Shown here: positions 4,226 through 9,530 of the stretch, one piece after another
How positions within the stretch are numbered: position 1 is the first letter of the stretch
Layout of the letters: each line of letters opens with the position of its first letter
Origin: a virus
Strand: one strand, 5' to 3'
DNA: 13,883 nucleotides
UHGV virus genome: UHGV-0131300
The notes under the pieces: model-generated
Told to the model about the DNA's origin: nothing
What the model saw: only the letters and a program-made list of their open reading frames with translations
Databases searched by the model: none
Position numbers and translations under genes: made by a program

Positions 4226-4400
4226 CCAAAACCCCCAGCCGGGAAGCCGTTACAAGGATTCTCACGGGGCTGTAGTGACCGTTGAGCGCGTCGAGCATAA
4301 CCGAGTGACCTTTTACCGCGAGGGCTATCAGTCGCCATGTGTTCAGCCTTTGGAGAGATTCGTTAATGAGTTCGTGGAGGTGCGCCGTGATACTGAATGA
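4218..4400 (+). CDS. Small hypothetical protein (60 aa)
   Basis: ATG 4218 overlaps the end of the preceding gene (stop 4223..4225). Confidence 0.5.
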   Translation: MRNQNPQPGSRYKDSHGAVVTVERVEHNRVTFYREGYQSPCVQPLERFVNEFVEVRRDTE

Positions 4401-4840
4401 ACCTGCCGCCCAGAAAGAAGCCTTTAATCTGGCTGGCCTGTTAGCAAATGTTAACCCTTACAACCTGTCAAAACCTGACATTCATCGCCGCGCCGTTGCG
4501 ACAAATGACGACATTTTAGAGGCGTTTTCTGGGCTGAGAATTGGGCTGCGAATCCTAATAAATCCTAAGTTTTTTTCGCATTTCGTGACCAGTACGCGCG
4601 AGAAAGTTTTTTCTGACAACACTACGCCAGTGGAAAATTATTCCGCTGTCTTGAGTTTTCGGAGCATTACGCGCCCGTCTGGGGAGTTTTCGGACTATGT
4701 AAAAAAGGGCAGTACCTACAGGTCAGACCACCAGCAGGAAAATCAGTGTTATAGTCCCAGTGTTGCTGCAAAATCAGCAACCGGGCGTGGAAACCCGAAC
4801 ACACTCAGGGCGACACAGACGCCGAAAGCGTCTTTTTTTG
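4401..4840 (+). ncRNA. Candidate non-coding regulatory RNA or leader region ending in an intrinsic terminator
   Basis: No credible coding signal despite an open frame. Direct repeat gagttttcgga at 4653..4663 and 4684..4694; hairpin gttgctg/cagcaac at 4762..4781; terminator gacgc-cgaaa-gcgtc plus T7 at 4818..4839. Confidence 0.35.
4818..4839 (+). terminator. Rho-independent terminator inside the non-coding region
   Basis: gacgc (4818..4822), loop cgaaa, gcgtc (4828..4832), then ttttttt (4833..4839). Confidence 0.75.
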
Positions 4841-5028
4841 TGTCCGTTCACTACGCACATCAAATCAGCGGCCTCGTCCGTACTGTATCTATGGTGGCGT
4901 TAGTGGGGCTACGTTCGCGTAGGCCGGTTTCCTTTGTGTCCGGTATTTCCACCCCTGCTAACGTCACCGCCATTTCAGAGCGTGGAAACTCAGGCGGTGA
5001 CTCCTTAAACACAAAGGAGGCTGCCATC

Positions 5029-5217
5029 ATGGCTACTACCCCTACCCAAAATCCACAATTTATCTGGTTAATCGCAGCCGTTCGCCGCGACATGCCGACA
5101 ATTACCGCCAAAATCCATCATGTTGCTGCCGAAAGCGAGCGCGAAGCACGTCAAACTCTGGCACGAGATCACGTCTGTTTCTTTGCAGGCCGCATCCGTC
5201 TGGAGGTGGCAGCATGA
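5029..5217 (+). CDS. Small protein (62 aa), first gene of the replication operon; possibly Icd-like
   Basis: Strong SD aaggagg (5014..5020) 8 nt before ATG 5029. The upstream part of the 4339..5217 frame crosses a terminator and is rejected. The Icd-like family assignment is low confidence. Confidence 0.65.
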   Translation: MATTPTQNPQFIWLIAAVRRDMPTITAKIHHVAAESEREARQTLARDHVCFFAGRIRLEVAA

Positions 5218-5411
5218 GCCGTGAACTCACCTTAGAGCAGGCCGCAGAACGCGCGCACCAGACTGAAATAATTGCCCGTCTGGTTGAAGACTTCCCCCAT
5301 CACCTTGCCGATAGCGAAGTATCCGCAATCGCCACTCCGCTAAAGCGCCTTTCCGGTGACGTTACCGCATGGCTGATTGAAGAATTGGCAGAACGGGAGG
5401 GGAAGCGATGA
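5214..5411 (+). CDS. Small hypothetical protein (65 aa)
   Basis: ATGA start/stop overlap with the preceding ORF; ggagg SD at 5202..5206. Confidence 0.6.
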   Translation: MSRELTLEQAAERAHQTEIIARLVEDFPHHLADSEVSAIATPLKRLSGDVTAWLIEELAEREGKR

Positions 5412-5587
5412 AACAGGGACTAAGCGTTAGTGAAGTAATGTGCAGAATCCAACAGGCGCAGACCGTCCTCACCATGTGGCTTCACACCATGACCACCGAC
5501 GACGGGGAAGCGCCCGATATGGTGGATGCGGTGCTGACAATCTTAGACGGGCTGGCCGATGCGCTGGCAGTGGAGAGTGACAAATGA
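5408..5587 (+). CDS. Small hypothetical protein (59 aa), absent from the supplied ORF track; paralog of the next gene
   Basis: ATGA overlap at both ends (5408 and 5584). Translation MKQGLSVSEVMCRIQQAQTVLTMWLHT... shares the C-I---AQ-VL-MWL motif with the 5584..5805 product. Confidence 0.55.
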   Translation: MKQGLSVSEVMCRIQQAQTVLTMWLHTMTTDDGEAPDMVDAVLTILDGLADALAVESDK

Positions 5588-5805
5588 GCCAGTTACAACT
5601 GATTGATGCTGCCTGCCAGATTGAACCGGCACAGGCTGTTTTATCCATGTGGCTGGAGAGCACCAACAAAGACACTAGCCCCGACCTTCCGCGTCTTATC
5701 GGTTCAATCCTCACTTTGCTGCATGGCGTCCCGGAGGCAATGGAAGAAGCCGAAAGCAAGCTGGCTGACTATGTGATGCGTGAATATCGGGAGGGCAAAG
5801 CATGA
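5584..5805 (+). CDS. Small hypothetical protein (73 aa)
   Basis: ATGA overlaps on both sides; paralogous to the 5408..5587 product. Confidence 0.6.
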   Translation: MSQLQLIDAACQIEPAQAVLSMWLESTNKDTSPDLPRLIGSILTLLHGVPEAMEEAESKLADYVMREYREGKA

Positions 5806-6428
5806 GCAATATACTGACCATTAAACCGGGAAATCCCGACCTGTTCCACGCCGAAGCCACACCGCACGGCGTCAATATCATGACCCGCAATGATGCCGGG
5901 ATGTATGAGCATGTTTGCCTTGTTCCCTATTCAGACGCGGTAACTCATCTCGATAGCGGCAGGTATGACGACATCCCTGATGAAGGATTTACCCTGCATC
6001 TGGCAGTGGCTGACGGCGGGGAGCGTGGCTGGTTCGACTTCACCGCGCAGCATAACGTCACTATGTGGCGCTGGCTGATTGCTGCGACGTTCGTTTCTGA
6101 GATGAAGCGCGAGAACGGCACCACCACGGTTACTGAGGCTGACGGCACATCATCGCAGGTGGCGATTTACTCCAATGGTAATGCGGGCATGGTGGTTTAC
6201 CCGTTTGCTGAACGGCTGGCGATGGCGAACAACATCGAGGGCGCAATGATTGAGCGCTACGGCGTTGAGCAGGGAACAGAGAACGCCATTGTGTTCTACC
6301 GCGCCATGCTGGATACGGAGCGCGGCGAGCTGACCCCGTTCGGACGTGAAACGCTGGCAGAGCTACACGATCACTTCATTGCTGATCTGGATGAAAACGG
6401 CTGGCCTGAAATGCCAGCGGCGCACTGA
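5802..6428 (+). CDS. Hypothetical protein (208 aa)
   Basis: ATGA overlap with the upstream ORF; gggagg SD. No recognisable motif. Confidence 0.65.
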   Translation: MSNILTIKPGNPDLFHAEATPHGVNIMTRNDAGMYEHVCLVPYSDAVTHLDSGRYDDIPDEGFTLHLAVADGGERGWFDFTAQHNVTMWRWLIAATFVSEMKRENGTTTVTEADGTSSQVAIYSNGNAGMVVYPFAERLAMANNIEGAMIERYGVEQGTENAIVFYRAMLDTERGELTPFGRETLAELHDHFIADLDENGWPEMPAAH

Positions 6429-6437
6429 GGGGGCGAC

Positions 6438-6779
6438 ATGATTACCAAAAACTTCCGACTGAATGCGCTGGCGAACCAGTACGCGGCGGCACTTTACAAC
6501 CACATCACGGCTATCAATGGTGGCAATTACTTCATGGTTGACGCGGCAGGCCAGCAAATCCGTGTGGAACTGGTGGGCGGTATCAGTGGCACGCGCCAAC
6601 TTATTGATGGTTACGCGCTCGAAGCACTCAAAGAGACATACCCTCAGTGGGAAAGCATCGGGATCACCATGCTGGAGAAATGCGTCAATGCTGGTGGCCT
6701 GACTGATACCGGGCGCGAGATATGGCAAAGCATGATTAATGATATGGGCGCGACCGTGGCAGGAGGCAACCATGCGTAA
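6438..6779 (+). CDS. Hypothetical protein (113 aa)
   Basis: gaggggg SD; its stop overlaps the primase start (ATGcgTAA). Confidence 0.6.
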   Translation: MITKNFRLNALANQYAAALYNHITAINGGNYFMVDAAGQQIRVELVGGISGTRQLIDGYALEALKETYPQWESIGITMLEKCVNAGGLTDTGREIWQSMINDMGATVAGGNHA

Positions 6780-9213
6780 TATCGACCTTATCCGCGAAGT
6801 GACCAGCGCCGCAGCAGGGCGCTGGCCTTATGTGCTGGCTGGCCTGTCTATCGACGTGCCTGATTCATCACGCCGTCATGCCCCCTGCCCTGCATGTGGC
6901 GGTACGGATCGCTTCCGGTTCGACGACAACGGTCGCGGTAGCTTTATCTGTAACCAATGCGGCGCGGGCGACGGCTTAGACCTGATTAAGAAGGTGAACA
7001 ACTGCGACACCACAGAGGCGGCACAGCTTGCCGCTGATGTGCTGGGTATTGATTACCGGGCAGCGCAAACCGACCCGGCGGCAGCGAGCCAGAGAAGGGA
7101 GCAACTGGAAGCTGACCGCCAGCAGCGTGAGCAGGAGCGCCAGCAACAGGCAGCAGATGACGCAGAGCAGCGAAGGGCTACGTTTGCCCATCTGTATGCC
7201 GGAATGCGCCAGAGTGCCACACAGGGCGAATCTGATTACCTGCAATCAAAAGGGCTGACCGGGTTTAACTATCCGGTTATGCCGGATGGTTCGTTATTGC
7301 TGGAGCTGGTGGACGAATCCGGCGCAGTGGCAGCAGCGCAAACCATTACACCGCAGGGAGAGAAGCGACTCCTGACAGGTTCAGCAAAGCGCGGGGCATA
7401 TCACGCCGTAAACGCGCCAGAATCGCCGCAGAGCGTTTTAATTGCCGAGGGGCTGGCGACGGCCCTTTCAGTTCACCTGATGCGCCCGGACGCGCTGGCA
7501 GTGGCAGCAATTGACGCGGGCAACCTGCTACCCGTTGCCGAAGTGATGCGCCGGATATATCCAGCCACGCAGATTATCATTGCCGCAGATAACGACCACC
7601 AGCAGGACGAACAGGCGAACACGGGCAAAGATGCCGCAGAGAAAGCCGCCTTATCCGTGGCTGGCTGGGTGGCACTGCCGCCGACAGACTACAAAGCCGA
7701 CTGGGACGACTACCGCCAGCAAAACGGGCTGGAAGTCGCTACGGCTGCGTTTAACGATTCGATGTACCAGATTCAAGGGGAAGCCGTGAAACCGCGATTG
7801 CAAGCCATTGAGGGCGGTAAATCCCGCCGTAAAGCCGATGTCGGAGATATTGCACAAATGGCAGCCAGCCAGAAAGCGCGGTTGCTTTCATCTCGATGGG
7901 ATATGTTGGCGGTTAACCCTGATAGTGGCACTGTTTACTGCTACGAATCTGGCGTATGGGTGAAGCTACCAGACAGCGAATTAGAAAGGGTTATGGTGGC
8001 AATTTTCGACGAGCACGAAGCCCACTACACCGAAAAGGGGATTAAATCGGTTGTCGCAACCATGAAGCTGCAAATACCGGTAATTGGTGAGCGGAGCGGG
8101 GATCTGATTGGTTTTGATAACGGCGTTTATGACCTCGCTACGCAGACGTTTTCCGCCCATTCGCCGGGTAACTGGCTGATGAACCACAATGGGATCACCT
8201 ACACCCCGCCAGCGCCGGGGGAAAATATTACCACCAGCGCCCCCAATTTTACCCGTTGGCTGAATCATGCAACGGCTGGCGACCATCATAAGGCCGAGCG
8301 TATCAAAGCAGCCTTGTTTATGGTGCTGGCGAAGCGTCACGACTGGCAGCTATTCATTGAGATAACTGGCGAGGGCGGTAGTGGGAAATCCGTATTCAGC
8401 AGCATAGCAACCACGCTGGCAGGTGAACACAACACCGCCAGCGGTAGCATGATGACGCTGGACACCGCACGGGGACGGGCGCAGTTCGTAGGAAAAAGCC
8501 TGATTATTATGCCTGACCAGACCCGCTATGTTGGAGAGGGTGCGGGGATTAAAGCCATTACGGGCGGCGATCCGGTAGAGATTGATGGGAAATATGAAAA
8601 GCAGTTCACAACCGTGATAAATGCCGTTGTTATGGCAACCAATAACGAGCCGATGACATTCACGGAGCGAAACGGGGGCATTGCCCGCCGCCGCGTGATA
8701 TTCCCGTTTAATAACCCGGTATCAGACGCAGACAAAGACCCGGATTTAACCGCAAAAATCAGGCGAGAAATCCCGGTGATTATCCGCCACCTGCTAACCA
8801 CCTTTGCCGACCAGAACAAAGCAAAGTCACTATTACTTGAGCAGCGCGATTCTCAGGAGGCGCTAGACGTTAAACGCGGCACAGATCCGGTTATCGATAT
8901 GTGTGCGGCACTTTTTTTCATGAACGAACCCAAAGGCATGATGATGGGCGGAGGTACATGGGCAGGCCAGCCAGAGCCTAGGACGTATCTTTATCATCTT
9001 TATCTGGCGTTTATGGAGTATCACGGTTTGGGTAAACCGCTTTCCGTCAATAAGTTTTCACGCGCCATAAAATCAGCAGCAAAAGAGTACCGAGCCAGCT
9101 ACCTGACGAGAAGCATTAACGGCAGAGCGCAAACCAACGTTGGCTATAACGAGAAGGCTGAGGAGTTCATGCCACGCGCTTACGGTGTGGAGAGCGGGCA
9201 GAGTGATGATTGA
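6772..9213 (+). CDS. DNA primase-helicase, P4 alpha-like (zinc finger, TOPRIM-like region, D5-type NTPase)
   Basis: Zinc finger CPACGG...CNQCG near the N-terminus; acidic IIIAADNDHQQDE segment; Walker A ITGEGGSGKSVF; Walker B-like SLIIMPDQ. AGGAGG SD at 6761..6766 favours ATG 6772 over the track start at 6739. Confidence 0.9.
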   Translation: MRNIDLIREVTSAAAGRWPYVLAGLSIDVPDSSRRHAPCPACGGTDRFRFDDNGRGSFICNQCGAGDGLDLIKKVNNCDTTEAAQLAADVLGIDYRAAQTDPAAASQRREQLEADRQQREQERQQQAADDAEQRRATFAHLYAGMRQSATQGESDYLQSKGLTGFNYPVMPDGSLLLELVDESGAVAAAQTITPQGEKRLLTGSAKRGAYHAVNAPESPQSVLIAEGLATALSVHLMRPDALAVAAIDAGNLLPVAEVMRRIYPATQIIIAADNDHQQDEQANTGKDAAEKAALSVAGWVALPPTDYKADWDDYRQQNGLEVATAAFNDSMYQIQGEAVKPRLQAIEGGKSRRKADVGDIAQMAASQKARLLSSRWDMLAVNPDSGTVYCYESGVWVKLPDSELERVMVAIFDEHEAHYTEKGIKSVVATMKLQIPVIGERSGDLIGFDNGVYDLATQTFSAHSPGNWLMNHNGITYTPPAPGENITTSAPNFTRWLNHATAGDHHKAERIKAALFMVLAKRHDWQLFIEITGEGGSGKSVFSSIATTLAGEHNTASGSMMTLDTARGRAQFVGKSLIIMPDQTRYVGEGAGIKAITGGDPVEIDGKYEKQFTTVINAVVMATNNEPMTFTERNGGIARRRVIFPFNNPVSDADKDPDLTAKIRREIPVIIRHLLTTFADQNKAKSLLLEQRDSQEALDVKRGTDPVIDMCAALFFMNEPKGMMMGGGTWAGQPEPRTYLYHLYLAFMEYHGLGKPLSVNKFSRAIKSAAKEYRASYLTRSINGRAQTNVGYNEKAEEFMPRAYGVESGQSDD

Positions 9214-9232: not shown

Positions 9233-9478
9233 ATCCCTACTGCCCTACTAAAAACGAGACGAGGCCAGACGTAGCAAGGCTTTAAACTAGGTAGGGATAT
9301 ATATTTTTATCCCTACTTATCCCTACATATCCCTACCAAATAAAACAGGCAGTAAAATGCCGTTGAAGTGATTTAGTAGGGATAAGTAGGGTTATGTAGG
9401 GCAACAAAATTGAATGCCTACCAGTCTGAAAGCCTTGCCATTCGTGGCCTGAGCCAGTTAGTAGGGATTGGTAGGGAT
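9233..9478. repeat. Iteron array (putative replication origin): about 10 copies of GTAGGGAT / ATCCCTAC at 10-bp phasing around an AT-rich spacer
   Basis: atccctac at 9233..9240, 9309..9316, 9319..9326, 9329..9336. gtagggat-type copies at 9291..9298, 9376..9383, 9386..9393, 9396..9403, 9461..9468, 9471..9478. Lies immediately downstream of the primase gene. Confidence 0.75.
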
Positions 9479-9530
9479 ATTACACCCCCAAAAAGATTCT
9501 ATGGGGGGTAGCTTAAAACGAAGGTGGGCA

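Follow-up and report, generated by a model that had tools for sequence, protein, structure and literature searches.

What do the short, overlapping open reading frames (ORFs) at positions 5408-5805 of the virus genome UHGV-0131300 encode, and why is one of them missing from the ORF track of this DNA? The window, i.e. the whole stretch of 13,883 nucleotides (nt) that was analysed, carries the pair as follows.

5408..5587, plus strand: ORF59, 59 amino acids (aa), ATG start, A-type member of the family described below, RefSeq WP_002436684.1.
5584..5805, plus strand: ORF73, 73 aa, ATG start, C-type member of the same family, RefSeq WP_104457531.1.

An earlier reading of the sequence, referred to here as the original prediction, regarded the two as tandem paralogs and probably as co-regulated replication or derepression factors. 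The comparisons described below indicate that ORF59 and ORF73 are genuine protein-coding genes under purifying selection, and place them as ancient paralogs in one uncharacterised family of small proteins of Enterobacterales. With a probability of about one half, we regard them as accessory early (takeover-type) factors that would bind a host or phage protein, probably as hairpin dimers. The absence of ORF59 from the track was attributed in the original prediction to its length, and this is correct: the default minimum of the ORF list is 60 aa, so that ORF59 falls one residue short, and it is listed when the minimum is set to 55. The “missing” gene is a cut-off artefact and was already annotated; RefSeq calls both products hypothetical protein.

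The translational coupling of ORF59 on both sides was also recognized correctly. Start and stop codons overlap as ATGA at all four junctions of the run (5214, 5408, 5584 and 5802), and Shine-Dalgarno sequences of the GGAGG type are situated 6-8 nt 5' of the starts (5395-5402, 5572-5577 and 5789-5795). The elements immediately around ORF59 are the following.

5214..5411, plus strand: ORF65, B-type gene, phrog_1478 (E=1.8e-27), a type often found directly upstream of C-type genes.
5395..5402, plus strand: Shine-Dalgarno sequence GGGAGGGG for ORF59, within the last codons of ORF65 (...EREGKR, then stop); the ATGA overlap is at 5408-5411.
5572..5577, plus strand: Shine-Dalgarno sequence GGAGAG for ORF73, within the last codons of ORF59; the ATGA overlap is at 5584-5587.

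The pair belongs to a run of seven consecutive plus-strand ORFs from 5029 to 9213 joined by overlaps or short gaps, as had been proposed: 5029-5217, 5214-5411, 5408-5587, 5584-5805, 5802-6428 (ORF208), a 9-nt gap, 6438-6779 (ORF113), and the primase gene ending at 9213. The start of the last is 6772 in RefSeq, with an 8-nt overlap with ORF113, and not 6739.

The proposed paralogy is confirmed by pairwise alignment, shuffled-sequence controls, the family alignment and membership in the same two PHROG families. BLASTP aligns ORF59 and ORF73 with 16/43 identities (37%, E=5e-11). Their Smith-Waterman score of 93 compares with 22.5±4.3 for shuffles (maximum 53), and 0 of 40,000 shuffles (2 x 20,000) reach 93; the remaining ORFs of the window reach at most 39 against the two proteins. 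The core cited in the original prediction, C-I---AQ-VL-MWL, is indeed shared, but its spacing is not right: only two residues separate I from A, and the motif reads C-I--AQ-VL-MWL. In the PHROG profile search, both proteins match phrog_20558 (E=1.2e-9 for ORF73 and 2.4e-4 for ORF59) and phrog_2196 (E=5.9e-5 and 7.2e-3, respectively), which are families of unknown function.

Homolog clusters number 121 for ORF73 and 26 for ORF59, all of them from Enterobacterales, and a joint profile retrieves 82 representatives at 50% identity, ~57-80 aa in length, among 1.84 billion proteins. The conserved core consists of C-[RQ]-[IV]-x-Q-A-Q-x-V-L-x-x-W-L in helix 1, where ORF73 has P for the first Q, and T-[LI]-L-x-G in helix 2. 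W23 is invariant in the family alignment A3, and the conservation of Q15, L20 and L46 is 90% or more in alignment A1 as well as in A3; in A1 only, A16 is invariant and Q17, V19 and T44 are at least 90% conserved. A TTDDG..PDMVD loop is conserved in the A-type subfamily (ORF59-like), which lacks a third helix; the C-type subfamily (ORF73-like) possesses one. Identity to orthologs in other genera amounts to 67-81% for the A type and 52-85% for the C type, as compared with ~32-37% to the paralog. Each subfamily is closer to its orthologs elsewhere than to its paralog, which indicates that the duplication is ancient. A recent local duplication was rejected on the same ground, since the ortholog identities exceed the ~37% identity between ORF59 and ORF73. 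The idea that ORF59 is a truncated ORF73 pseudogene was also rejected, because the A-type genes form an orthologous group that is conserved, keeps its length and is under purifying selection.

Searches for a family of known function were negative. ORF59 and ORF73 have no match in Pfam, NCBIfam or PADLOC scans; the PADLOC defence-system models likewise match none of ORF65, ORF59, ORF73, ORF208 and ORF113. A Pfam scan of 40 diverse family members gives no consistent family, a sequence-profile search of the PDB finds nothing below E=0.14, and a literature search on the RefSeq accession, the Fels-1 locus tag and DUF4222 returned nothing about these proteins. In tblastn against 50,697 phage records, ORF73 retrieves only Fels-1 and ORF59 retrieves nothing. 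No member of phrog_20558 or phrog_2196 has a known function.

The AlphaFold2 model of ORF59 is a two-helix hairpin (helices 7-27 and 35-58) with a mean predicted local distance difference test (pLDDT) score of 88. That of ORF73 is a hairpin plus an extended third helix (6-26, 34-46 and 49-71) with a mean pLDDT of 84. Fold searches return generic hairpins only. The proteins are acidic, with a net charge of -7 and an isoelectric point (pI) of 4.05 for ORF59 and a net charge of -6 and a pI of 4.5 for ORF73; for the family as a whole, the net charge ranges from ~-5 to -7.

ORF65 is probably a third, distant paralog of the pair. Alignment of the A/C profile with the B profile by hhalign gives a score of 25.4 (P=1.6e-4) with the N-terminal helix in register, and 0 of 600 column shuffles reach this score (maximum 21.9). 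Column shuffling destroys helical periodicity, however, and the kinship is therefore treated as suggestive only. The C-terminal “REGK” shared by ORF65 and ORF73 was rejected as evidence of homology, because it is encoded by the Shine-Dalgarno sequence of the next gene: GGGAGGG (5395-5402 and 5789-5795) specifies the “...REGK” tails of both proteins, a dual coding and ribosome-binding constraint that mimics protein conservation.

Both ORFs are considered real genes because both are under purifying selection. The proportions of nonsynonymous (pN) and synonymous (pS) differences between ORF59 and its orthologs are 0.14-0.25 and 0.48-0.99, respectively, and the ratio of nonsynonymous to synonymous substitution rates (dN/dS) is 0.12-0.26 where estimable. 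For ORF73, comparison with most of the orthologs at 78-84% nt identity gives a dN/dS of 0.04-0.15, and for ORF65 the ratio is 0.04-0.2. Between the ORF73 genes of Escherichia coli ET479 and the window, the third codon position accounts for 26 of the 38 differences. These values bear on the proposal that the ORFs have no protein function and serve merely to keep the mRNA from kil to the primase gene occupied by ribosomes, providing coupling and protection from Rho. The ATGA overlaps throughout the operon would suit such a role, and translation of upstream ORFs controls read-through in the P1 and P4 immunity regions (PMC10111431). Nevertheless, strong selection at the protein level (dN/dS ~0.04-0.26), a motif conserved across genera in different contexts and confident structure predictions render it very improbable. 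An origin or iteron site, or an RNA gene, at 5408-5805 was also rejected, as there are no repeats within this stretch and no Rfam match there.

Judged from its gene content, the window is a satellite island of the phage-inducible chromosomal island (PICI)/P4 type adjoining yicC; integrase, AlpA and a P4-family primase are found together with C4/isrK immunity RNAs on one island, which marks it as a satellite. The genes flanking the pair are the following.

4387..5217, plus strand: eta-like long ORF, 276 aa, with a Phage_ASH match (PF10554, E=8e-24) at aa 122-222.
4749..4974, plus strand: P4/P1-type RNA immunity switch, Rfam RF03163, RF01394 and RF01695, all above gathering score.
4749-4838, plus strand: a1b1/isrK target, with an intrinsic terminator at 4817-4833.
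4887-4974, plus strand: C4 antisense RNA (Rfam).
5029-5217, plus strand: Icd/Kil-like short form, 62 codons, the in-frame C-terminus of the long ORF, with ATG at 5029 and an AGGAGG Shine-Dalgarno sequence (NF033153, E=9e-21).
5802..6428, plus strand: ORF208, phrog_1515 (E=5e-47) and phrog_5991 (E=7e-4), ATGA-coupled to ORF73.
6438..6779, plus strand: ORF113, phrog_37628, overlapping the primase start.
6772..9213, plus strand: P4-alpha-type primase-helicase with Zn-ribbon, Toprim, D5_N and DUF5906 (Pfam and TIGR01613).

The Phage_ASH match of the long ORF coincides exactly with the RNA-coding stretch, and the ORF stays open across the isrK/a1b1 and C4 genes. The arrangement is that of the eta/kil/CI-RNA region of P4, the logic of which has been set out by Mageeney et al. 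2023 (PMC10111431). The cell-division inhibitor-like short form is basic (pI 9.5) and is 43% identical to the C-terminus of the P4 “cI ORF”. We also note that RefSeq names the whole 4387-5217 ORF “Icd-like”, and that protein and RNA genes overlap here on the same strand. The C-terminal part of ORF208 is weakly Cnr-like, the cnr gene of P4 belonging to phrog_5991. Some close ORF208 homologs (88-89% identical) carry a precomputed PF17345 hit, and members of the ORF208 family are found in lambda-like early-left operons as well. The primase and P4 alpha share 39% identity over 812 aa (E=6e-171). A consensus scan of the plus strand from the isrK terminator (4817-4833) to the primase gene found no promoter-like or terminator-like site, and the sole later terminator-like match, at 7267-7291, is within the primase gene. 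The claim that the small proteins are co-regulated is supported by this arrangement, i.e. one co-directional operon with no match to a promoter or terminator consensus between the isrK terminator and the primase gene.

The region between the immunity switch and ORF208/primase is variable among E. coli islands. Related flanking DNA is present in 125 complete E. coli genomes, and the pair of ORF59 and ORF73 in 9 of 5426, with ORF73 alone in one more. E. coli S43 keeps the Icd-like gene, ORF208, ORF113 and the P4-family primase in flanks ~86% identical to the window, and has three unrelated small ORFs of 59, 104 and 87 aa in place of ORF65, ORF59 and ORF73 (locus L079, 1988-2738); ORF59 and ORF73 are evidently dispensable for the primase module. 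Two of the S43 replacement ORFs bear clearly spurious RefSeq names, “ubiquinol-cytochrome C reductase” and “nicotinic acetylcholine receptor subunit beta”. The ET479 copy (locus L078, 1501-1898) differs from 5408-5805 of the window at 1 of 180 nt in ORF59 (99.4% identity), a synonymous difference that leaves the protein identical, and at 38 of 222 nt in ORF73 (83%). This sharp change in divergence indicates a recombination breakpoint at the ATGA junction of the two genes. The S43 replacement, the ET479 breakpoint and the patchy presence of the pair together indicate that the slot behaves as an exchangeable cassette.

A wider view was obtained from 75 loci encoding a family member, in which seven neighbouring families were mapped with hidden Markov models; many of these loci are near-duplicates, and the counts therefore overstate the number of independent observations. 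Satellite-type loci with the order Icd...C-(208)-(113)-primase make up 57 of the 75. Another 11 are lambda-like and carry the genes in an early-left operon downstream of a CI-type repressor, most commonly in the order repressor-Icd-A-B-(x)-C. Fels-1 and prophages of Yersinia enterocolitica are examples of the latter group, in which the ORF208 and ORF113 families are also found. Some satellites have C4/isrK RNAs ahead of the module; the lambda-like loci do not. B-type and C-type genes are adjacent in Fels-1, Salmonella and other loci, whereas the only loci in which A adjoins C are the window and that of Pantoea sp. 1.19 (L021), which keeps the B-A-C-208 order and the 4-nt overlaps. An obligate A-C heterodimer is disfavoured, as 63 loci have a C-type but no A-type gene, and 4 have an A-type but no C-type gene.

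Two observations of a different kind were made in these loci. In five of the lambda-like operons (L003 and L004 at 6788-7171, and also L038, L054 and L076) there is a 127-aa protein resembling Peptidase_S24 and the C-terminus of CI, encoded after the C-type gene (after the B-type gene in L076), i.e. a second, truncated repressor-like gene. A contig labelled Chryseobacterium sp. 18061 (L013) is a typical enterobacterial island with an ORF73 protein 89% identical to that of the window, and its label is probably due to contamination or mislabelling.

The satellite loci lend themselves to an explanation in terms of replication. By this account ORF73, and perhaps ORF59 as well, would be a binding partner of the primase-helicase or of the Cnr-like ORF208 and would adjust the firing of the origin or the copy number. 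In 32 satellite loci the gene after the C-type gene is ORF208, and in 22 it is the primase gene itself; the coupled operon is shared with the primase, ORF208 is weakly Cnr-like, and a Toprim primase with kinship to the N-terminus of P4 alpha is encoded in 7 of the 11 lambda-like loci. However, the 12-kb locus of the Yersinia prophage L004 contains a replication module of the DnaB/DnaC type and lacks a P4-type primase, although its A, B and C proteins match those of L003 at 100% identity, and S43 retains ORF208, ORF113 and the P4-family primase in the absence of A, B and C. Moreover, lambda-like phages place these genes in the leftward operon, away from the replication genes, and no similarity to P4 Cnr (DUF5375, phrog_5991) or ORF151 was found. 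We consider a role as replication accessory factors rather unlikely.

The same set of loci bears on the relation to the Icd/Kil-like division inhibitor. An Icd-like gene is present upstream in all of the loci with an A-type gene, which number only 12, and Icd and A are consecutive among the detected families in 10 of these (6 lambda-like, 2 satellite-type and 2 unclassified). Since the charges are opposite (pI 4.0-5.1 versus 9.5) and the genes share one coupled operon, the acidic hairpins might be modulators or antidotes that, by binding to the basic Kil-like protein, control when or how strongly it is toxic. Such a function is also rather unlikely: up to 10 of the 71 C-type loci, including Fels-1, show no Icd-like gene, ORF65 stands between Icd and ORF59 in the window, and the Icd-like gene of S43 is kept with neither A, B nor C. 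The charge argument is, furthermore, a generic one.

The position of the genes in the operon raises a further explanation. P4 epsilon occupies the same place, directly after the eta/kil/CI-RNA region and before cnr and alpha, and ORF59 and ORF73 are small and acidic, as expected of repressor binders. They could thus be helper-prophage derepression factors, functional analogs of epsilon that would bind the helper repressor to induce the helper. BLASTP and profile searches of ORF59 and ORF73 against all P4 ORFs gave no match, however, and epsilon (phrog_10016/3688), ORF151 and Cnr belong to different PHROGs. Self-sufficient prophages of the lambda-like group carry the family as well, an antirepressor of the AntA/AntB type is already encoded on the island, and the cassette is absent from most related islands; helper derepression is accordingly given little credence here. 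The replication-or-derepression function assigned in the original prediction is not supported, in view of the lack of similarity to epsilon, ORF151 or Cnr, the presence in self-sufficient prophages, the absence from sister islands and the AntA/AntB protein on the island. It is unlikely that ORF59 and ORF73 are core replication proteins or derepressors of the P4-epsilon type.

The assignment of ORF59 and ORF73 as accessory early factors is favoured because the family also occurs in lambda-like early-left operons and because sister islands swap the genes out. The operon is located downstream of the eta/kil region and the isrK/C4-RNA switch, so expression would take place only when immunity is lifted. 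On lifting of the RNA-mediated immunity, ORF59 and ORF73 would be made together with the Kil-like and replication proteins. Each hairpin protein, probably acting as a dimer, may then bind and neutralise a partner protein of the host or of a co-resident or helper phage. We infer this protein-binding, inhibitory mode of action from size, charge, fold and context. Two points weigh against the assignment. The tight linkage of the C-type gene to the primase in satellites (the 22 and 32 loci mentioned above) fits a replication-linked role equally well, and the redundancy among the 75 loci reduces the number of independent contexts in which the family has been seen.

A more far-reaching proposal is that ORF65, ORF59 and ORF73 are diversifying acidic helical-hairpin inhibitors, each subfamily directed against a different host or helper protein, such as a repressor, a protein of the nucleoid or one that binds DNA, or a component of a defence system. 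The slot between the Kil/RNA-immunity region and the primase would then be an unrecognised hot spot of exchangeable counter-host and counter-helper cassettes, common to PICI-type satellites and lambda-like helpers, and functionally parallel to P4 epsilon while evolutionarily unrelated to it. This proposal is tentative, possible but on balance not expected. If the proteins are inhibitors of host or helper proteins, the slot would be useful for mining new anti-repressor or anti-defence functions.

The remainder of the island is as follows. The gene order is tyrosine integrase, int-alpA RNA, 321-aa ORF, AlpA, 143-aa ORF, AntA/AntB protein, DUF4222, the long ORF at 4387-5217, ORF65, ORF59, ORF73, ORF208, ORF113, P4-family primase, single-stranded DNA-binding protein (SSB) and further ORFs. 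The RNA upstream is located thus.

1578-1644: int-alpA RNA (RF02996), just 3' of the integrase gene.

The window is 100% identical over 2.2 kb to the yicC-dinD island in E. coli ECONIH4 and other strains. In the ECONIH4 copy (locus L001, 5236-6846) an ISSpu7-family insertion is found between the 321-aa ORF and alpA, and the absence of this insertion from the window (~2630-2745) indicates that the window comes from another carrier of the same island. The 321-aa ORF (1665-2630), which could be island cargo, is matched by neither Pfam nor PHROGs, and PADLOC gives only a marginal hit (PDC-S31, E=0.002). Directly 3' of the primase gene, at 9262-9480, 10-bp iterons (GTAGGGATA / TATCCCTAC) are arranged in inverted clusters along with an 80-nt imperfect inverted repeat; this segment is a probable replication origin.

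The finding is genuine, though ordinary and of modest importance: hypothetical proteins of this kind occur in every temperate element, and these were already present in RefSeq and PHROGs. A short ORF below a listing cut-off proves to be a real gene under selection, and an unnamed three-branch family (A, B and C types) of small early proteins is seen to be common to lambda-like prophages and PICI-type satellites. In the satellites, the slot that holds the family is swappable and is flanked by a P4-like RNA immunity switch on one side and by the replication genes on the other. What is new here is minor: the ancient origin of the paralogs, a probable third paralog, the occurrence of the family in both lambda-like prophages and PICI-type satellites, and the exchange of genes in this slot.

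Among known systems, lambda offers a parallel in Kil and CIII, small accessory proteins of the early-left (pL) operon that are encoded beside a cell-division inhibitor, are dispensable and mosaic, and bind host proteins. Their likeness to ORF59 and ORF73 is an analogy of context only. The island as a whole shows the same zone order as the Gram-negative PICIs, i.e. int-alpA-Bro zone followed by replication zone (Mageeney et al. 2023, PMC10111431), its PICI-like parts being the integrase, int-alpA RNA, AlpA, a Bro-network gene (AntA), C4/isrK RNAs, primase and SSB. It also matches the “classical PICI” gene set listed in PMC13612085. The two papers (PMC10111431 and PMC13612085) do not describe small ORFs between the immunity RNAs and the primase.

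The architecture of the P4 left operon (eta/kil, CI RNA, epsilon, ORF151, cnr and alpha) is matched by the window, where a regulator of the AlpA/Vis type is likewise present, together with an eta-like Phage_ASH ORF in which isrK/C4 (seqA/CI-like) RNAs are embedded, an in-frame Kil/Icd-like form, small ORFs and an alpha-type primase. The AlpA protein itself resembles Vis of P4. The small ORFs of the island occupy the slot of epsilon and ORF151. In contrast to P4, all island genes including int are on one strand, and epsilon, ORF151 and Cnr have no homolog in ORF65, ORF59 or ORF73. Pfam, PHROGs and the RefSeq annotation show no psu, sid or delta among the remaining ORFs of the island, so that the island fits the “classical PICI” set (int-alpA-pri) rather than the P4-like elements sensu stricto.

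The nearest counterpart of the pair is STM0898.5n of the Salmonella phage Fels-1 (YP_001700546.1), which is 40% identical to ORF73, matches it in size and is itself a member of phrog_20558 (E=1.6e-42). A B-type gene is situated directly upstream of STM0898.5n, a further likeness to the window. The contexts differ, in that the Fels-1 gene is part of a lambda-like early-left operon, whereas the window has two diverged members of the family next to each other, in a satellite and upstream of the primase.

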